From the IMG/VR virus record IMGVR_UViG_2630968558_000006: DNA of 14,950 bases; one strand, 5' to 3'. The stretch comes from a virus. Its lineage: Duplodnaviria; Heunggongvirae; Uroviricota; Caudoviricetes. Made by a program: the position numbers and the translations under genes. Each line of letters starts with the position of its first letter. The first letter of the stretch is position 1. The notes below the pieces were generated by a model. It worked only from the letters and a program-made list of their open reading frames with translations, did no database searches and was not told the origin of the DNA. Below, piece by piece: positions 444-9,174 of this stretch.

Positions 444-513
444 TTAAGTGCGGGTGCGTTGAGGATGCCTGCCACATCAGAGGTGGCGAGGGATTTCTCC
501 CTCGCCGGGTCTC

Positions 514-669
514 TTACTCCTCAGGTTCGTAAGCTGTGAAGACAGCGACCTCCGTCTGGCCGGTTCGGATTCGTACCTCGCAGAGGTCTTTCCTCGTTAC
601 CAGTGCCGTCACTATGACGGTTAAACAGATGACGATCAGGGCGATTAACATCGCCTTTTGCTGCTTCAT
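514..669 (-). CDS. hokD: Hok-family membrane toxin HokD/RelF (51 aa)
   Basis: Translation MKQQKAMLIALIVICLTVIVTALVTRKDLCEVRIRTGQTEVAVFTAYEPEE matches my recall of K-12 HokD; AAGGAG Shine-Dalgarno before the ATG at 669. The track ORF 514..726 is an in-frame upstream extension, not the real start. Confidence 0.85.
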   Translation of the reverse strand: MKQQKAMLIALIVICLTVIVTALVTRKDLCEVRIRTGQTEVAVFTAYEPEE

Positions 670-1166
670 AGCCTGCTTCTCCTTGCCTTTCGGCACGTAA
701 GAGGCTAACCTACATGTGTCTAGCATGAAATTGGCCTCAGATTAATGTTAAGCGTCTTGCAGGACGCGTAATGTTAACTGGGGCTTTTCTCTATCTGCCG
801 TTGGTGTTCATGCCCGAGGCAGATAGCCTCAAGCACCCGCAGCCATTCTACTTAACTACCGTTACCTCGCCAATATGAAATCAATCAGAAAGGTGATCCA
901 TAAGAACAATAACAAGACAATAAATTGCCATTACAGCCACAATAGCCAGCGTGCATTTGAGAACCAGCACATAAATCTCCTGCTCTTGACGTATACAGGC
1001 ACTGATAAATATGTGTCTTCGTGCTCGTTACTTCAATACGTAAGCGTCAGTTGCGCGTAATCAAATCAGACAACCGACTTTAAACCAGGGACAAACAGCA
1101 GGTAAAATAATCAAACGTTATTTTAAGCCATATCATGGCTGCAAGATTTCCTCTAATTTCAACAAG

Positions 1167-1203
1167 ATGAGCAGGTCATTGCTTGCACTGATGACCTGCT
1201 CAT
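1167..1203. repeat. Perfect 13-bp inverted repeat ATGAGCAGGTCAT / ATGACCTGCTCAT with 11-nt spacer
   Basis: Read directly from sequence (1167-1179 and 1191-1203); lies about 80 nt downstream of the QueH-like gene stop on the minus strand; no clean U-run on either strand. Confidence 0.5.
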
Positions 1204-1281
1204 TAATCATGATTATTTGAAAATTAAGGTAGGCGTACTATATATAGAAACACTGCTACGCTCCGTTGGCATAATATAAAA

Positions 1282-1968
1282 TCATTCCTGTCCTTCTTTA
1301 CCGTAGTGCAGTTGACCAATTTTGATTAGAGGGCGTCCCTGAGATTTGCGGTGTAGATTGGTATCGCGCAGTGAATACACGCAGCCACAATATTCCTGCT
1401 GATAGAATTGTTCGCGCTTGCTGATTTCAATCATGCGGGAAGAGCCGCCCTGTTTTCGCCAGTTATAATCCCAGTACACCATGCCCGGATAATGCGCGAC
1501 GGCTCGCCGTCCACAGTCGTTAACCTGCTGCATATTTTTCCAGCGTGAAATGCCCAGTGAGCTACTGATCACACTGAAACCATTTTCAGCGGCATACAGT
1601 GCAGTCCGCTCAAAACGCATGTCAAAACACATGGTACAACGGATCCCTCGTTCAGGCTCCCATTCCATTCCTTTGGCTCGCTCAAACCAGTTGTCTGTGT
1701 CGTAATCAGCATCAATAAATGGCACGCCGTGTTGTTTAGCAAAGCGAATATTCTCATCCTTACGAATTAAATACTCTTTCTGAGGATGAATGTTCGGGTT
1801 GTAGAAAAAGATGGTGTAGTCGATTCCCGAGGCCTGAAGCGCCTCCATCACTTCACCGGAACATGGAGCACAGCAAGAGTGCAGTAATAGTTTTTTTGCC
1901 CCGTTTGGGAGCTCCAATTTGGGGCGTTTGAAATCAGCAACAGTCATAAATGTGTTTATGAGGTTCAT
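1282..1968 (-). CDS. QueH/DUF208-like protein (putative epoxyqueuosine reductase homolog). Start uncertain: ATG at 1968 or 1947; the track ORF extends to a GTG at 2061.
   Basis: Motifs [18 protein letters not shown] (CxxC) and [10 protein letters not shown], which I recall as the cysteine signature of the DUF208/QueH family. No strong Shine-Dalgarno at any candidate start. Confidence 0.6.
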
Positions 1969-2000
1969 GAAAATAGCAAAAAGTGTAGCATCAGAACGGG

Positions 2001-2207
2001 CTATCGGAAACAGATGTCTAAATCTGGTAATGTCTGCTTTTGATGCAAAGCAGACAACCACGGCAGCGCACGAAAATCAGCGATAATGTCGGGATTAATA
2101 ATCGGGTGACGTCCATCACATAGCGAATGTTCCTCTTTCCTGATATCGCTAAATATCGACCATTCGTCATTCTTATCGAACCAGAGCATGCGACTGCCAC
2201 AGCACAT
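2001..2207 (-). CDS. Possible small hypothetical protein (68 aa from ATG 2207; the track ORF runs from GTG 2303 and would overlap the upstream gene)
   Basis: Fills the 262-nt gap between the 140-aa gene and the QueH-like gene; contains [15 protein letters not shown]. No convincing ribosome-binding site, so this is weakly supported. Confidence 0.3.
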
Positions 2208-2230
2208 GTCGAGAATGGTAGCCGATGTAC

Positions 2231-2653
2231 TCACAGCATCACCTCCCGATAATTCCCCTGATAAAACGTCAGAACACGCTGCATAACTTCGCTCTTCCGG
2301 CACTCGCGACAGATTATGTTTAGACGACTGTCGTAGCGGCGTATTTCTCCGTCAGGTAATGACCAGATAAGGTCCGGATCAACCACAGCAGGTTTCTTCA
2401 CCTTTGCCCTCGAGAGTTTTTTGCGGGCGTTTTGCCAGTCCTTACGCGCCTGTTCAGACGGGAATAACCCGTAGCCGGAGTTGTATACATCGCCACTGGC
2501 TACCAGCTCTCTGGCAAGAACGCTCATCAGATATCTAGTCGCACCTGTTTTAGCTTCCAGTTGCCGTAACGTCTCACGACCGCTCTGGCGCACGAGTTCC
2601 ACCACCTGCCCTTTAATTTTTTCCCGCTCTTCTTGTGTAAAAACTTTTGCCAC
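2231..2653 (-). CDS. Hypothetical phage protein (140 aa) directly downstream of the replication initiator
   Basis: GTG start at 2653 preceded by a strong AAGGGGGA Shine-Dalgarno; basic, with a CxxC element (ICRECRK). Function not recognised. Confidence 0.6.
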   Translation of the reverse strand: MAKVFTQEEREKIKGQVVELVRQSGRETLRQLEAKTGATRYLMSVLARELVASGDVYNSGYGLFPSEQARKDWQNARKKLSRAKVKKPAVVDPDLIWSLPDGEIRRYDSRLNIICRECRKSEVMQRVLTFYQGNYREVML

Positions 2654-2693
2654 AAGTCCCCCTTAAAATTACCTCATGACCTGAAATCAACAC

Positions 2694-3659
2694 TTATCCT
2701 CTGAAACCAGGCGGAATTTCTGTATCCGGTTCAGAAATATGATTAACACAACGCTGTACAGGTGAACGTCCCAGGCGGATGACCAGTTCGTCCCATTTTT
2801 CGCGGAGCTTTGACGGGCTCATGATGTTTTTTACCCAGAATGGATCTCGCTGAACCCGACCAAACATTTCGCAAATTTGTCTGTGGCTTCTGCCATCCAG
2901 CATCCGCATTGTGCGCACGTCATTGGCCCAGGCAGTCCAGTTAGGCTCTTTTGGTCGCATGATCTCGCCATCATCACTGGCTGCCTGTTCGTAGAGACCC
3001 ACGATCCGCCCCCAGATCCACTGCGCACACGCCAAATCCTCCCTGCTACCCCACTGGCGTTTTTTCGCACTAAACACAACCGCGTCGGAGTTCCGGGTTA
3101 AAAAATCCTGTTCAGTCGTCTGCGGGTCCGGTTGCGAAGCTTCCGGACGAAAAGTGTTTTTATTCTCTGTAGTAATCTCTGTTGTATTCTCTGTAAGATC
3201 ATCAGGCCATTTTGACCCGATGACATTGGGTCGTTTTGAACCAATGGAGCGTTTCATTTTGACCTCTTCCATCGTATCATTTAGACCTGATGGAGCAGCG
3301 CATTTTGAACCGATGGATACGCTCAATTTACCACCATCTAAAAGCTCGCACCCATAGTTGATCGTGTAGAAATTGGTCATGTCGCGCTTTGATTTATTGA
3401 GCTTTTCGCAACGCAAAAGCCCCAGCGTTTTCAGACTTGCAAACGCGCGCTTTAACGTTGACTCTGACCAGAATGGGAACTGTTCCAGCCATTGTTCCGT
3501 TGTGTTATAAATCCAGCGGACACCATCACATTCCATACCGGAATTAGTATCTCTCAACCAGTAATGCAACTGCTGCAACACAATGGCCTCGTTTAAGCCA
3601 ATCTTCATCGCAAGCTGTGTGTTTATAACCAGTGGGCGTTCAGCAAAAAGAAGACTCAT
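2694..3659 (-). CDS. Phage replication initiator, O-like (about 321 aa from ATG 3659; the track ORF begins at an upstream TTG 3713)
   Basis: Sits downstream of the Cro-like dicC and a cII-position ORF; carries an internal direct-repeat (iteron-like) array at 3209-3317 encoded as repeated IGSK peptides. The ATG at 3659 overlaps the end of the upstream ORF (translational coupling). Confidence 0.6.
   Translation of the reverse strand: MSLLFAERPLVINTQLAMKIGLNEAIVLQQLHYWLRDTNSGMECDGVRWIYNTTEQWLEQFPFWSESTLKRAFASLKTLGLLRCEKLNKSKRDMTNFYTINYGCELLDGGKLSVSIGSKCAAPSGLNDTMEEVKMKRSIGSKRPNVIGSKWPDDLTENTTEITTENKNTFRPEASQPDPQTTEQDFLTRNSDAVVFSAKKRQWGSREDLACAQWIWGRIVGLYEQAASDDGEIMRPKEPNWTAWANDVRTMRMLDGRSHRQICEMFGRVQRDPFWVKNIMSPSKLREKWDELVIRLGRSPVQRCVNHISEPDTEIPPGFRG
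3209..3317. repeat. Iteron-like array: five about 23-bp direct repeats, consensus CATTTTGA(A)CC-GATGG, starting at 3209, 3233, 3256, 3279 and 3302
   Basis: Direct reading of the sequence; regular 23-24 bp spacing; the third unit is degenerate in its right half. Preceded by three TCTCTGT-containing repeats at 3163-3198. Confidence 0.6.
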
Positions 3660-4161
3660 AATTCCATCCAGCTTTTTGTTGGTATTGCTGTCGATACGCA
3701 AGCTTGAAAGCAATTGCTTTTTCTATAAGTTCGTCAGTTTCACGATCCACTACGGCAGGATCAGCAAAAAGCAGTCCGGACTCCACCACATCGCCATATT
3801 CTTTGTTTAACCCGGCGATCATATACGTGATGCTTTTTCCGTCACTAATTTCACGATATAACCTGAAATCATTAATCCGGATAGCCTCCATAATTGCAGG
3901 CACTAGCGCCATGAACTTTTCACGCTTATCCCTGGTGTCGATAGCCTTCCAGCGTTCGAATATCTTCACTCGATTAACGCCAAGCGCTCGCTGATCAACC
4001 GCGCCACCTTCATCTGTGACACGCTTAACATCGATGTTCGGGCGCTCTTTCAAAGCCCAGAATGCTTCAGTGATTAATATCGTCGCCTGCTCCTGTGTCA
4101 TTCCTGGTCGACATATCCAGGCATCCAGAGCCTCACGAGCCTGTTCAGGAGTGATTTTCAT
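3640..4161 (-). CDS. Hypothetical phage early protein (173 aa) in the cII-equivalent position
   Basis: ATG at 4161 overlapping the dicC stop by 17 nt; protein-like sequence. Function not recognised. Confidence 0.55.
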   Translation of the reverse strand: MKITPEQAREALDAWICRPGMTQEQATILITEAFWALKERPNIDVKRVTDEGGAVDQRALGVNRVKIFERWKAIDTRDKREKFMALVPAIMEAIRINDFRLYREISDGKSITYMIAGLNKEYGDVVESGLLFADPAVVDRETDELIEKAIAFKLAYRQQYQQKAGWNYESSFC

Positions 4162-4375
4162 TGTTCAACCGCCCCGCCCGCTTCGTCTTACGATATTCGT
4201 CATAAACTTTGGGGTCATACTGAAGCTCCCCGCCAGATGCCTCCTGTAGACGCATCGCGCGACCTTCGGGAACTAAATCCCCTTTCCAGCTATAAAGCGA
4301 AGCCAAACGAATACCAGCTGCTTGTGCAAGTTTTGTTTTTGAACCGAAATACAAAAGAGCGTCAGTTTTAAGCAT
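4145..4375 (-). CDS. dicC: DicC, Cro-like regulator (76 aa)
   Basis: Translation MLKTDALLYFGSKTKLAQAAGIRLASLYSWKGDLVPEGRAMRLQEASGGELQYDPKVYDEYRKTKRAGRLNNENHS matches my recall of K-12 DicC; AAGGTG Shine-Dalgarno; divergent from dicA. Confidence 0.9.
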   Translation of the reverse strand: MLKTDALLYFGSKTKLAQAAGIRLASLYSWKGDLVPEGRAMRLQEASGGELQYDPKVYDEYRKTKRAGRLNNENHS

Positions 4376-4458
4376 TTAAAACACCTTGATTGTTAGTTAT
4401 AACTAACAAAATAGATGTTAACAAAAACATAGTCAATACGATTTAGCATTAGCTAACT
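4376..4458. promoter_or_regulatory. Divergent dicC/dicA promoter-operator region with a 20-bp perfect palindrome TTGTTAGTTATAACTAACAA (4390-4409)
   Basis: Palindrome verified by reverse-complementing; additional ATGTT/AACAT inverted arms at 4414-4429 and a TTAGCTAA palindrome just before the dicA ATG. No canonical Shine-Dalgarno precedes dicA. Confidence 0.6.
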
Positions 4459-4866
4459 ATGGATACAAAAAATTTAACTATCGGCGAACGCATTAGGTAT
4501 CGTCGGAAAAACCTCAAACACACCCAAAGGTCTCTTGCTAAAGCCCTGAAAATCTCCCATGTGTCTGTATCACAATGGGAACGGGATGATAGTGAACCTA
4601 CAGGGAAGAACCTTTTTGCCCTCAGCAAAGTATTGCAATGCTCACCAACATGGATTCTATTTGGCGATGAAGACAAGCAACCAACACCACCTGTTGAGAA
4701 GCCAGTTGCCTTATCTCCCAAAGAACTAGAGCTCCTTGAGCTGTTTAATGCACTGCCAGAATCAGAACAGGATACCCAGCTCGCCGAAATGCGAGCTCGA
4801 GTAAAAAACTTCAATAAACTCTTTGAAGAATTACTAAAAGCCCGTCAGCGGACAAATAAAAGATAA
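4459..4866 (+). CDS. dicA: DicA, C2/cI-like HTH repressor (135 aa)
   Basis: Translation MDTKNLTIGERIRYRRKNLKHTQRSLAKALKISHVSVSQWERDDSEPTGKNL... matches my recall of K-12 DicA almost throughout. Confidence 0.9.
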   Translation: MDTKNLTIGERIRYRRKNLKHTQRSLAKALKISHVSVSQWERDDSEPTGKNLFALSKVLQCSPTWILFGDEDKQPTPPVEKPVALSPKELELLELFNALPESEQDTQLAEMRARVKNFNKLFEELLKARQRTNKR

Positions 4867-4900
4867 CATCATCAATGAGTTATCTTTTACTACATTAATT

Positions 4901-4955
4901 ATGTTAGTCATAACATACAAAATCACTTGACCAATATGTTAGTCATAGCTAATCT
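4901..4955 (+). promoter_or_regulatory. Putative dicB-operon promoter with operator repeats: ATGTTAGTCATAACAT (4901-4916) and ATGTTAGTCATAGCTAA (4936-4952); -35 TTGACC (4927-4932) and -10 TAATCT (4950-4955) with a 17-nt spacer
   Basis: Hexamers and repeats read from the sequence; the repeats share TGTTAGT with the dicA/dicC palindrome; location matches the DicA-repressed dicB promoter recalled for K-12. Confidence 0.5.
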
Positions 4956-5032
4956 TGTTTGCATCAACACACCGCACGGTGTTCTCAGCAAACAGTTCCG
5001 CTACCCCGGCGTTAAGGGGAAATGAGGTCAGC

Positions 5033-5185
5033 ATGGATACTATCGATCTTGGCAACAGCGAATCTCTGGTATGTGGCGTGTTCCCCAACCAGGACGGTAC
5101 GTTCACCGCGATGACATATACCAAAAGCAAAACGTTTAAAACCGAATCTGGCGCGCGTTGCTGGTTAGCCAGAAACACTGACTGA
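5033..5185 (+). CDS. ydfA: YdfA-like small protein (50 aa), first gene of the dicBF operon
   Basis: ATG at 5033 with GAGG Shine-Dalgarno 5 nt upstream; MDTIDLGN... resembles my recollection of K-12 YdfA. The track ORF start at 4955 lies inside the promoter region and is rejected. Confidence 0.7.
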   Translation: MDTIDLGNSESLVCGVFPNQDGTFTAMTYTKSKTFKTESGARCWLARNTD

Positions 5186-5196
5186 TGAGGCTGACG

Positions 5197-5466
5197 ATGG
5201 AATTTAAAGATTTACCGTCTGATGTACAGAAAACAGCAGCTCATACATTGCATTCTGTGCTGCGAGAAATCGGGAAAGATATTGCAAGCGAGCCAGCAAA
5301 AGATCTGGCCCGGAAAATCAAGACCGCTTTCGTTGAGCTTTATAATGTTGGCACTGACTCTGAAACTGTCGAGACCAAGAGCGTAAGTTCACCAATATTC
5401 TCACTTGAGCCAGGCGTATTATCAGGTGAAATATCACCGAGATTTCCAGCGAACTGCTTCCGGTAA
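5197..5466 (+). CDS. YdfB-like protein (89 aa; the N-terminus MEFKDLPSDVQK resembles K-12 YdfB, but this gene is longer)
   Basis: ATG at 5197 with GAGG 6 nt upstream; an alternative ATG at 5185 overlaps the ydfA stop (TGATG). Confidence 0.6.
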   Translation: MEFKDLPSDVQKTAAHTLHSVLREIGKDIASEPAKDLARKIKTAFVELYNVGTDSETVETKSVSSPIFSLEPGVLSGEISPRFPANCFR

Positions 5467-5529
5467 TACGAGAAGCAATTTGCCGTCGCGGTTTGGATGG
5501 AAGTTACGATCATGACGTCCTGCAAGTTC

Positions 5530-5730
5530 TCAGGACAATGGTGACTTCACTGGGGATTTGATCCCTGCGTCCTCTAACCTTTTGATATAGCGGTCCTCCA
5601 AGAAGCGGTAAATTTTGTCGAAATCATCTTTCCCCTCTGGTTTATTCAGAGGATTACAGGACCCGTAAGTAGCGGCATACATTTCAACCGTTTTATCAAA
5701 AATATAAGAGACAAATTCTTCTTTAGTCAT
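5530..5730 (-). CDS. Hypothetical small protein (66 aa) oriented against the dicBF operon
   Basis: ATG at 5730 with GAAGGAAA Shine-Dalgarno about 8 nt upstream; protein-like charged sequence; locally AT-rich; no competing plus-strand ORF longer than about 15 codons in 5467-5740. Confidence 0.45.
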   Translation of the reverse strand: MTKEEFVSYIFDKTVEMYAATYGSCNPLNKPEGKDDFDKIYRFLEDRYIKRLEDAGIKSPVKSPLS

Positions 5731-6005
5731 ATAGATTTCCTTCTTGGTTATTCGGGATAAGAAGGATACCACCTCGCCTGACGTGGTTAAAAGCAGGCAC
5801 ACAACACGAAAGCGCACGGCGAAGTTCGTCTCACTGTACGGTGTCGTTAAATTTAATTCGACCGTGCGCTTCCGGTTGTGGCAACCCGCGAAATGGCGCG
5901 GCGGTAAGTATGGCGGGGTTATTCCTTCCCCGTTGAGGACACCGAGTTGTCAGGTTGACCATACGCTTAAGTGACAACCCCGCTGCAACGCCCTCTGTTA
6001 TCAAT

Positions 6006-6063
6006 TTTCTGGTGACGTTTGGCGGTATCAGTTTTACTCCGTGACTGCTCTGCCGCCGTTTTT
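6006..6063 (+). ncRNA. dicF: DicF small regulatory RNA (about 53 nt plus terminator U-run)
   Basis: TTTCTGGTGACGTTTGGCGGTATCAGTTTTACTCCGTGACTGCTCTGCCGCCG followed by TTTTT matches my recall of K-12 DicF (possibly one 3'-terminal difference); located between the ydfB-like gene and dicB as in K-12. Confidence 0.85.
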
Positions 6064-6232
6064 AAAGTGAATTTTGTGATGCGGTGAATGCGGCTAAGCG
6101 CACGCGGAACAGTTAAAACCAAAAACAGTGTTATGGGTGGATTCTCTGTATCCGGCGTTAATTGTTAACTGGTTAACGTCACCTGGAGGCACCAGGCACT
6201 GCATCACAAAATTCATTGTTGAGGACGCGATA

Positions 6233-6421
6233 ATGAAAACGTTATTACCAAACGTTAATACGTCTGAAGGTTGTTTTGAAATTGGTGTCACTATCAGTAA
6301 CCCTGTATTTACTGAAGATGCCATTAACAAGAGAAAACAAGAACGGGAGCTATTAAATAAAATATGCATTGTTTCAATGCTGGCTCGTTTACGTCTGATG
6401 CCAAAAGGATGTGCACAATGA
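6233..6421 (+). CDS. dicB: DicB cell-division inhibitor (62 aa)
   Basis: Translation MKTLLPNVNTSEGCFEIGVTISNPVFTEDAINKRKQERELLNKICIVSMLARLRLMPKGCAQ matches my recall of K-12 DicB; GAGGA Shine-Dalgarno 7 nt upstream. The track ORF from 6128 is a 5' over-extension. Confidence 0.9.
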   Translation: MKTLLPNVNTSEGCFEIGVTISNPVFTEDAINKRKQERELLNKICIVSMLARLRLMPKGCAQ

Positions 6422-6702: not shown

Positions 6703-9174
6703 ATGAGTAAAGTCTTTATTTGCGCCGCTATTCCTGACGAACTGGCAACAAGGGAAGAAGGCGCTGTGGCTGTAGCCACAGCCATTGAAGCTGGCGACGA
6801 ACGCCGTGCTCGAGCAAAATTTCACTGGCAGTTCCTGGAACATTATCCGGCTGCTCAGGACTGCGCTTATAAATTTATTGTCTGCGAGGATAAACCTGGC
6901 ATACCCCGCCCTGCCCTCGATTCATGGGATGCTGAATATATGCAGGAAAACCGCTGGGATGAGGAGTCTGCTTCTTTTGTCCCGGTTGAGACTGAATCCG
7001 ATCCGATGAACGTCACTTTTGACAAGCTGGCCCCTGAAGTACAGAACGCTGTCATGGTTAAGTTCGACACATGTGAAAACATCACCGTTGATATGGTTAT
7101 TAGCGCACAGGAATTGTTGCAGGAAGACATGGCAACATTCGACGGACATATCGTTGAAGCGTTGATGAAAATGCCAGAAGTTAACGCCATGTATCCGGAG
7201 CTTAAGTTGCACGCCATTGGGTGGGTTAAGCATAAATGTATTCCTGGTGCTAAATGGCCCGAAATTCAGGCAGAGATGCGCATCTGGAAAAAACGTCGCG
7301 AAGGTGAACGCAAGGAAACCGGAAAATACACGTCTGTTGTTGATCTCGCCCGCGCCAGAGCCAATCAACAGTACACTGAAAATTCAACAGGAAAAATCAG
7401 CCCGGTCATTGCTGCCATTCATCGCGAATACAAGCAGACATGGAAAACACTGGATGACGAACTGGCCTACGCTCTCTGGCCTGGTGATGTGGATGCCGGA
7501 AACATTGACGGCAGCATCCATCGCTGGGCAAAAAAAGAAGTTATCGACAACGACCGCGAAGACTGGAAGCGTATCTCGGCATCAATGCGCAAACAGCCTG
7601 ATGCCCTTCGCTACGACCGCCAAACTATTTTTGGCCTTGTCCGTGAGCGTCCGATCGACATTCACAAAGATCCCGTAGCACTGAACAAATATATCTGCGA
7701 ATACCTGACGACAAAGGGCGTGTTTGAGAATGAAGAAACAGACCTAGGCACTGTTGATGTTCTCCAGTCATCAGAAACACAAACTGATGCAGTGGAAACT
7801 GAGGTATCTGATATCCCAAAAAATGAAACCGCGCCGGAAGCTGAACCATCTGTAGAGCGTGAGGGGCCGTTCTATTTCCTCTTCGCAGATAAGGACGGAG
7901 AAAAATACGGTCGCGCAAACAAACTTTCTGGTCTGGATAAGGCACTGGCTGCTGGCGCCACTGAAATCACAAAAGAAGAATATTTTGCCCGAAAAAATGG
8001 CACATACACGGGCTTACCGCAAAATGTAGATACCGCTGAAGATTCAGAACAACCAGAGCCGATAAAAGTTACCGCTGACGAAGTAAACAAAATTATGCAG
8101 GCAGCCAATATCAGCCAGCCTGACGCCGATAAGTTGCTTGCTGCATCACGTGGTGAATTTGTTGAAGGGATTAGTGACCCGAATGATCCGAAATGGGTTA
8201 AGGGGATCCAGACCCGCGATTCTGTGAACCAGAACCAGCATGAATCGGAACGGAACTACCAAAAAGCGGAACAAAACAGCCCAAATGCGTTACAAAACGA
8301 GCCAGAAACGAAACAGCCTGAACCAGTGGCGCAACAGGAAGTGGAAAAAGTCTGCACCGCCTGCGGTCAGACCGGCGGCGGCAACTGCCCTGATTGTGGC
8401 GCGGTGATGGGCGACGCAACATACCAAGAAACATTCGATGAAGAGTATCAGGTTGAAGTTCAGGAAGATGATCCGGAGGAAATGGAAGGCGCTGAACATC
8501 CACACAAGGAGAACACTGGCGGCAATCAGCATCACAATAGCGATAATGAAACTGGCGAGACGGCAGATCACTCAATTAAGGTGAACGGTCATCACGAAAT
8601 CACATCCACCAGCAGGACGTGTGACCATCTAATGATCGACCTTGAAACCATGGGAAAAAATCCTGATGCCCCGATCATCTCAATAGGTGCAATATTTTTC
8701 GATCCGCAAACCGGAGATATGGGACCCGAATTTAGTAAGACTATCGATCTGGAAACTGCTGGCGGAGTCATTGATCGGGACACCATTAAATGGTGGCTTA
8801 AGCAATCACGCGAAGCGCAATCTGCCATTATGACCGATGAAATCCCGTTAGATGATGCACTGTTACAATTGCGGGAATTTATCGACGAAAACTCCGGTGA
8901 ATTTTTTGTTCAGGTCTGGGGAAATGGAGCCAACTTCGACAACACGATTTTGCGCCGTTCATACGAACGGCAGGGGATCCCCTGCCCGTGGCGTTACTAC
9001 AACGATCGCGATGTACGCACAATCGTTGAGCTGGGGAAAGCCATAGACTTCGATGCCAGAACGGCTATTCCATTCGAAGGTGAGCGCCATAATGCACTTG
9101 ATGACGCCCGTTACCAGGCAAAATACGTTTCAGTTATCTGGCAAAAACTGATCCCGAGTCAGGCTGATTCTTAA
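6703..9174 (+). CDS. ydfE: Prophage exonuclease (823 aa): N-terminal YdfE-like region, acidic low-complexity linker with a CxxC...CxxC zinc ribbon, C-terminal DnaQ-like DEDDh 3'-5' exonuclease domain
   Basis: N-terminus MSKVFICAAIPDELATREEG... matches my recall of the K-12 ydfE remnant. Zinc ribbon CTACGQTGGGNCPDCG (about 8350-8400). Exonuclease motifs MIDLETMG (Exo I), GNGANFDNTIL (Exo II) and HNALDDARY (Exo III) in about 8620-9174. GAGG Shine-Dalgarno 10 nt before the ATG. Confidence 0.85.
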   Translation: MSKVFICAAIPDELATREEGAVAVATAIEAGDERRARAKFHWQFLEHYPAAQDCAYKFIVCEDKPGIPRPALDSWDAEYMQENRWDEESASFVPVETESDPMNVTFDKLAPEVQNAVMVKFDTCENITVDMVISAQELLQEDMATFDGHIVEALMKMPEVNAMYPELKLHAIGWVKHKCIPGAKWPEIQAEMRIWKKRREGERKETGKYTSVVDLARARANQQYTENSTGKISPVIAAIHREYKQTWKTLDDELAYALWPGDVDAGNIDGSIHRWAKKEVIDNDREDWKRISASMRKQPDALRYDRQTIFGLVRERPIDIHKDPVALNKYICEYLTTKGVFENEETDLGTVDVLQSSETQTDAVETEVSDIPKNETAPEAEPSVEREGPFYFLFADKDGEKYGRANKLSGLDKALAAGATEITKEEYFARKNGTYTGLPQNVDTAEDSEQPEPIKVTADEVNKIMQAANISQPDADKLLAASRGEFVEGISDPNDPKWVKGIQTRDSVNQNQHESERNYQKAEQNSPNALQNEPETKQPEPVAQQEVEKVCTACGQTGGGNCPDCGAVMGDATYQETFDEEYQVEVQEDDPEEMEGAEHPHKENTGGNQHHNSDNETGETADHSIKVNGHHEITSTSRTCDHLMIDLETMGKNPDAPIISIGAIFFDPQTGDMGPEFSKTIDLETAGGVIDRDTIKWWLKQSREAQSAIMTDEIPLDDALLQLREFIDENSGEFFVQVWGNGANFDNTILRRSYERQGIPCPWRYYNDRDVRTIVELGKAIDFDARTAIPFEGERHNALDDARYQAKYVSVIWQKLIPSQADS

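Follow-up and report, generated by a model that had tools for sequence, protein, structure and literature searches.

A variable accessory-gene slot between DUF977 and hok/sok in the early-right operon of Qin/Rac-type lambdoid prophages

The DNA analysed here, IMG/VR record IMGVR_UViG_2630968558_000006 (14,950 nucleotides; hereafter the window, to which all positions refer unless another locus is named), is a Qin-type lambdoid prophage whose integration site adjoins rspB-rspA-ynfA-ynfB-speG. Its early-right operon lies on the minus strand, as do all features of the region considered here. We conclude that the segment from about 1070 to 2231, just downstream of the replication genes, is very probably an accessory-gene hotspot of Qin/Rac-type lambdoid phages, in which morons and defence systems are found between two conserved borders. 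In the window the slot holds a gene for QueH and the remnant of a methyltransferase gene. A first-pass annotation had proposed a cargo hotspot between hokD and the replication genes, in which a toxin-antitoxin pair of strain K-12 is exchanged for other accessory genes. Every gene that it listed is present where it had been placed, according to Pfam, PHROG and PGAP, and the hotspot is borne out by the survey described below; the exchange is not, and both borders have had to be redrawn.

Borders and contents of the slot

The variable slot runs from the stop codon of a DUF977 gene (2231) to about position 1070, ahead of a 29-codon open reading frame (ORF) and a hok/sok locus, and both of these flanks are conserved. 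Its variability was surveyed by scanning IMG/VR with a pattern taken from the 3' end of the 29-codon ORF, which gave 128 oriented loci. DUF977 lies upstream of the slot in 85 of these, and the distance from its end to the start of the small ORF varies from 1.16 to 7.0 kb. The 85 slots have 36 different architectures and contain 104 clusters of ORFs, counting those of at least 70 amino acids. When loci with unlike cargo are compared, their nucleotide agreement stays at 0.8 or more for about the first 100 nt upstream of the small ORF and is at background beyond about 200 nt.

The contents of these slots include many known defence systems. Of 20 representative proteins submitted, 14 match PADLOC models, and no fewer than 11 of these matches are strong (E < 1e-20), with E values such as 4.6e-144 for a CBASS cyclase, 7.9e-169 for a dCTP deaminase and 3.7e-157 for PD-T7-1. 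Other PADLOC matches are to PDC-S39, Tmn, PDC-S06, an NsnA-like protein, a SIR2/ThsA-like protein accompanied by an adenosine deaminase, and PDC-S15. Further representative proteins match SMEK, a class I methyltransferase, a BCCT transporter, DUF2254, HAD and NUDIX families. RefSeq annotation adds Kiwa in DA33137, an NgoMIV-type restriction-modification pair in O157:H7 Z1814, AIPR in SW070912 and sce7726/beta family proteins in UTAK-8. Several recurrent cargo clusters have no PADLOC match and no Pfam match or a marginal one; such clusters are represented, for example, by L076:781-1587, L022:4701-5477, L033:810-1829 and L017:7065-8063 (survey locus and positions). The slot is also seen in the phages HannyBb and mEp460, and some cargo genes are oriented on the opposite strand; the slot of mEp460 has a 450-amino-acid protein in that orientation.

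The left border is formed by the 140-amino-acid ORF at 2231-2653, which had been regarded as uncharacterised cargo. Its product is a conserved DUF977 protein, matching PF06163 at an E value of 4.7e-29 and phrog_142, which carries the PHROGs label "Ren-like exclusion protein", at 7e-47; a sequence search of the PDB gave chance-level matches only. The gene adjoins every cargo variant that was inspected and is therefore the border of the slot and not part of its cargo. The right anchor is a fixed unit, comprising the 29-codon ORF, which runs from 970 to 881, followed by a complete hok/sok locus (428-873). The distance from the stop codon of the small ORF to the hok coding sequence is 211-212 bp in all 103 of the loci that contain hok.

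The second supposed cargo gene, a 68-amino-acid ORF with its ATG at 2207 and its stop at 2001, is a pseudogene. It is the 5' half of a class I S-adenosylmethionine-dependent methyltransferase gene (2001-2234, with the homologous part at 2049-2234), its match to phrog_11564 covering positions 3-61 of 117 and so falling short of a complete methyltransferase domain, and PGAP annotates it as a pseudogene 'missing C-terminus'. An intact version, encoding 118 amino acids, abuts DUF977 in ECNB21-M121, and the stump in the window is what is left of earlier cargo. The stretch homologous to the intact gene ends at about 2068 and the QueH cassette starts at about 2062, which suggests that the cassette took the place of the 3' half of the methyltransferase sequence. 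A perfect 10-bp hairpin (TGTCTGCTTT/AAAGCAGACA; 2031-2056, minus strand, about -18 to -20 kcal/mol) sits exactly at this junction.

How such a slot could acquire its varied contents is suggested by its anatomy. The DUF977 gene on one side and the small ORF with hok/sok on the other may act as homology arms, and recombination between co-resident or infecting lambdoid phages would then swap the DNA between them. Abrupt breaks in homology at the conserved flanks, the many alternative inserts and the remnants of old cargo all fit modular exchange plus moron accretion. Both modular exchange between related lambdoid phages and moron accretion are established ideas.

Several points weigh against the hotspot as we have drawn it. 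The right flank is itself deleted or invaded in EC958-type and O157 Z1814-type prophages, from which positions 904-1275 are missing, and two of the defence systems named above lie inside or beyond that flank, namely the Kiwa of DA33137 and the restriction-modification pair of Z1814. The survey is biased towards prophages that retain the right flank, because the search pattern was the 3' end of the small ORF. Some long slots with chromosomal-looking genes (BCCT, LysR, DUF2254) may represent decayed prophages and not phage cargo. No obvious Shine-Dalgarno sequence and no strong promoter were seen for QueH, either in reading the sequence or in a promoter scan. Finally, the anatomy of the slot, its variability, the identities of its cargo and the K-12 breakpoints are shown by the sequences, whereas recombination between phages is the proposed process.

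A 372-bp segment (904-1275) is present in the window and in the Rac-type prophages GF54 and AR436, and is cleanly missing from EC958, Z1814 and DA33137; its loss removes the promoter and most of the coding sequence of the small ORF. On both sides of the Kiwa cassette of DA33137 is a copy of a stretch of about 42 bp, equal to window 810-851 (the hok promoter and 5' end); the two copies are located within 3750-3933 and 5911-6004 of that locus (L007), which suggests a third insertion point inside the otherwise fixed flank.

Origin of the K-12 Qin arrangement

Why does the Qin prophage of K-12 have such different genes at this position? Between hokD and dicC it carries relE, relB, ydfV, flxA, ydfW and ydfX, just as the first-pass annotation had stated, and it lacks window 684-3881 altogether, its homology to the window stopping at 683 and resuming at 3882. 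The explanation comes from two other prophages, those of strains DA33137 and ECNB21-M121.

One Qin-type prophage of DA33137 carries, in succession, DUF977, QueH, Kiwa, the leader of sok/hok (window 851-668), the remnant of an ISNCY transposase, ydfW, flxA, ydfV, relB, relE, hokD and rem. The block from relE to ISNCY is 3.27 kb long (477-3749 in the DA33137 locus; in the K-12 locus, L003, from 3290 onward). On either side of it stands a 16-bp direct repeat, ATAGCCTGCTTCTCC(T/G), corresponding to window 668-683, and the block itself ends in imperfect inverted repeats (20/28); the ISNCY transposase gene is a pseudogene. The target-site duplication and the terminal inverted repeats together identify the block as a transposon-like insertion, which separates the hokD coding sequence from its mok/sok leader. 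The insertion point is 14 bp upstream of the hokD ATG, and positions 668-683 of the window are the empty target site for the relE-relB-ydfV-flxA-ydfW-ISNCY block.

Comparison with ECNB21-M121 accounts for the remainder. K-12 is colinear with this prophage at 99.7-100% identity, except for a clean 4.8-kb deletion (1516-6314 of the ECNB21-M121 locus, L013). The deletion took with it the ISNCY remnant, two pseudogenes, the intact methyltransferase gene, DUF977, the O-like replication gene and, from the YdaT-like gene, its 3' part; the N-terminal part that remains is the ydfX of K-12. The cargo lost from the slot in the K-12 lineage was thus the methyltransferase, not QueH. The K-12 arrangement is the product of block insertion followed by the 4.8-kb deletion: the transposon-like relBE-ydfV-flxA-ydfW-ISNCY block first entered hok/sok, and the deletion came after it. 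K-12 hokD is without its sok and mok controls because the relBE block was inserted there, and K-12 Qin is without replication genes because of the mapped deletion.

These findings bear directly on the exchange that had been proposed, in which a relBE toxin-antitoxin cassette in K-12 and QueH with its small ORFs in this strain are alternative occupants of a single slot. The idea has a simple basis, in that between hokD and dicC K-12 has relBE, ydfV and flxA where the window has QueH and its neighbours. We nevertheless consider it most improbable. DA33137 holds QueH and the relBE block together, in one prophage; the block lies at a separate point, inside hok/sok, with its own target duplication and terminal inverted repeats; and the K-12 junction is a deletion in a prophage of the ECNB21-M121 type, whose slot held a methyltransferase. 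Synteny-breakpoint mapping against K-12 and other Qin-type prophages, the check that the first-pass annotation had itself put forward, contradicts a gene-for-gene exchange and leads instead to the insertion and deletion set out above.

The hok/sok unit, its upstream ORF and QueH

The right anchor contains all the parts expected of a hok/sok locus. The hokD coding sequence (514-669; Pfam HOK_GEF, PF01848, at 3e-23) is overlapped by a mok-like ORF (514-726) and is preceded by a leader/sok region (664-838) that matches the Rfam sok/hok leader model RF01794 over its full length, scoring 115 bits where the gathering score is 59. A promoter-like site at 845-873 is correctly placed for hok, and a terminator-like site lies at 428-445. 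The 5' end (838-816) pairs with the region downstream of hok in a tac/fbi-like manner, with a predicted energy of -31.9 kcal/mol. The Hok peptide, the overlapping mok-like ORF, the leader/Sok model, the 5'-3' pairing and the terminator are all shared with hok/sok of plasmid R1 and hokW/sokW of phage 933W. This locus differs from those in that a conserved ORF for a 29-residue membrane peptide precedes it at a fixed distance; in K-12, moreover, hokD/relF has been severed from the leader by the relBE block.

The original boundary of the variable interval, at 726, thus falls inside the hok/sok locus. The adjoining DNA had been described as about 550 bp of AT-rich non-coding sequence. Positions 726-1281 are only moderately AT-rich, with 41% G+C compared with 46% for the whole window, and they are not non-coding, being taken up mostly by functional elements, namely the sok/hok leader and hok promoter, the small ORF together with its promoter, and a hairpin.

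The product of the 29-codon ORF, MLVLKCTLAIVAVMAIYCLVIVLMDHLSD, is predicted to be a small hydrophobic membrane peptide with a single helix. Its GTG start codon lies 6 nt from a Shine-Dalgarno sequence, AGGAG (977-981), and further upstream is a putative promoter, TTGAAG-17-CATATT, with its -35 hexamer at 1031-1036 and its -10 hexamer at 1008-1013, so that these signals together occupy 977-1036. The hexamers and the Shine-Dalgarno sequence are kept across alleles whose spacers diverge. Judging from the sequence, the ORF would be expressed. In GenBank entries it is called 'membrane protein' or 'conserved hypothetical' (REL606 and BL21, by exact look-up). In EC958-type prophages the deletion of 904-1275 leaves only its last codons.

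A small hydrophobic peptide under purifying selection is what would be expected of a type I toxin. The only plus-strand promoter-like site nearby (1079-1108) lies outside the part that is conserved across loci, and sok was the only match in an Rfam search. No conserved antisense promoter was found, and we therefore do not class the ORF as a type I toxin. A 61-amino-acid ORF on the plus strand (875-1060), annotated in HannyBb, was considered as a gene and rejected; it is antisense to the 29-codon ORF, and it is the frame of the latter that shows purifying selection.

The intact QueH gene is at 1282-1947, the start being that given by PGAP. The protein matches PF02677 over its full length (profile positions 1-174 of 175; E value 2.7e-65; 220.2 bits against a gathering score of 23.5) and also belongs to a PHROG family of its own, phrog_3217. 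It aligns over 177 residues with the QueH of Thermotoga maritima (DUF208; 7LC5), and the CC(AP), CxxC and CGC motifs, whose cysteines we take to be metal ligands, are all kept. It differs from the T. maritima enzyme in that its gene is carried by a temperate phage whose host has the B12-dependent QueG already, and its activity is predicted.

The nearest queH genes outside Escherichia are those of Scandinavium (92% identity), Kluyvera (90%) and Enterobacter (88-90%). They occur in non-prophage contexts, with no DUF977 or hok within 3 kb, and their DNA homology to the window is limited to the coding sequence (1278-1990), implying that a phage captured an essentially bare housekeeping gene from an enterobacterial chromosome. 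The coding sequence and about 115 bp upstream of it form a mobile cassette (1276-2062), the same block being found with different neighbours in ST131 EC958, O157:H7 Z1814, DA33137 and E. albertii. Of 5426 complete E. coli genomes, 995 (~18%) have the queH coding sequence. On its 3' side is a spacer (1071-1281; 36.5% G+C) that accompanies QueH in the Rac-type prophages GF54 and AR436 and contains a stable hairpin at 1167-1203, with a perfect 13-bp stem, an energy of -22 kcal/mol and a z score of -3.6. This hairpin is likely to be the QueH terminator.

The likeliest role for QueH follows from the biology of the host. In E. coli the epoxyqueuosine step is carried out by QueG, which is cobalamin-dependent, and the organism does not synthesise B12 de novo; QueH is a non-orthologous, iron-dependent replacement of QueG. 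The phage gene would therefore probably provide the lysogen, or the replicating phage, with a cobalamin-independent step from epoxyqueuosine to queuosine in tRNA. That it reduces epoxyqueuosine-tRNA is something we infer from its 88-92% identity to the chromosomal queH genes.

For both the small ORF and QueH, other explanations have to be weighed. The 29-codon ORF could be no gene at all, in which case what is conserved would be a signal in the DNA or RNA, for example an upstream element belonging to the hok promoter or a regulatory transcript acting on hok/sok. It ends only 8 bp from the hok -35 hexamer and has no terminator of its own; its product has no credible match in Pfam, NCBIfam or PHROG, the one NCBIfam hit, at 16 bits where the cut-off is 116, being at chance level; and it is left unannotated by RefSeq PGAP. 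Set against this is the pattern of substitution. The ratio of nonsynonymous to synonymous polymorphism (pN/pS), computed over codons 2-20, which are free of the constraint imposed by the search pattern, is 0.17 in the frame of the ORF compared with 0.56 and 1.89 in the other two frames. The ORF is intact, with GTG, AGGAG and stop codon kept, in 122 of 127 loci, and its 16 peptide variants differ by conservative substitutions only. A purely regulatory role for this DNA is thus unlikely, and a gene for a membrane peptide is the reading that we prefer. For QueH, a direct service to the phage has to be considered, through the tuning of tRNA queuosine to lytic codon usage, through 7-deazaguanine modification of DNA or through counter-defence. 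The gene is in the sense orientation of the early-right operon, so that it would be transcribed in lytic growth, it forms a PHROG family of its own, and it is carried by an isolated, viable phage. Yet the window has no tgt/dpdA, queC, queD, queE or folE genes, and membership of a DNA-modification module was rejected for lack of these partners, while the close identity to chromosomal housekeeping genes argues for an unchanged tRNA chemistry. A variant acting on lytic translation cannot be separated by sequence data from one that benefits the lysogen. Overall we judge a direct service to the phage to be rather improbable, if somewhat less so than the absence of a gene in the preceding case, and favour the completion of queuosine independently of B12.

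Genomic context, relation to known hotspots and significance

The genes on either side of the slot region are those of a lambdoid early operon. Upstream of DUF977 are the core early genes for an O-like replication initiator (2694-3659; phrog_391, E value 3.5e-90) and a YdaT/CII-like protein (3640-4161; found by PHROG search), the pair at 2694-4161 matching phrog_391 and phrog_163, and beyond them a Cro/DicC-like gene (4145-4375). Downstream of hok/sok is rem (61-297), whose last codons have been replaced by the end of an IS66-like element (1-64). This element lies outside the slot and is mentioned for context only; it has no counterpart in REL606, S19-651 or K-12, and positions 1-400 match strain GPEC996 in full, with the same junction, the features there being rem and an IS66-like tnpA. 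Of 5426 complete E. coli genomes, 67 have exactly this arrangement, among them those of E. coli B REL606 and E. coli C, and it is carried too by the isolated phage HannyBb, in which 664-1290 is 100% identical.

Farther along the window, the DicF small RNA is intact at 6007-6058 (plus strand; RF00039, 72.5 bits), with DicB and YdfD downstream of it. These are followed by an uninterrupted gene for an 823-amino-acid exonuclease (6703-9174) and then by xis and an integrase gene. At these positions K-12 has the pseudogenes ydfE, insD and intQ.

Hotspots of antiviral systems in prophages are known from P2 and P4 (Rousset et al. 2022, PMC9122126; Vassallo et al. 2022, PMC9519451). Like them, the slot described here is short and lies between conserved core genes of the phage; what it holds changes between prophages that are otherwise alike, and both known and candidate defence systems abound in it. 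It differs from them in the type of phage, here Qin/Rac-type lambdoid, in its flanks, which are the DUF977 gene and the small ORF with hok/sok, and in its cargo, which is mixed and includes metabolic QueH, NUDIX and HAD proteins and a BCCT transporter.

A second comparison is with the ren/nin region of lambda and the moron concept, reportedly due to Hendrix, Juhala and colleagues. That region likewise follows directly on the replication genes and precedes the Q antiterminator, and it too is mosaic, with extra genes between core genes. No lambda nin genes are present here, however, the conserved neighbours being DUF977, hok/sok, rem and DUF968, and the autonomous promoters and terminators that morons should have are in this case putative, being hinted at indirectly by the opposite orientation of some cargo genes and by the hairpin after QueH.

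The hotspot thus belongs to a known class, and its specific interest lies in the phage-borne QueH, the fixed unit of small ORF and hok/sok, and the corrected history of K-12 Qin. Literature searches on prophage QueH, on DUF977, on the sequence of the peptide and on defence hotspots of lambdoid phages turned up no description of the locus among the papers covered. A larger claim would be that the interval from DUF977 to hok is a major defence hotspot of lambdoid prophages in E. coli that has yet to be described and could be mined for new systems, and that the 29-residue peptide may be a new toxin-like or hok-modulating partner; this is possible, and we offer it tentatively.

The locus is a defined place in which to seek new defence systems, since its borders can be specified by sequence, it occurs in the commonest class of E. 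coli prophage, and it holds both known and unassigned systems. Its cargo may also matter for the host. A phage-borne, B12-independent QueH in some 18% of complete E. coli genomes, those of the laboratory strains E. coli B and BL21 among them, could alter the queuosine status of tRNA when cobalamin is scarce.

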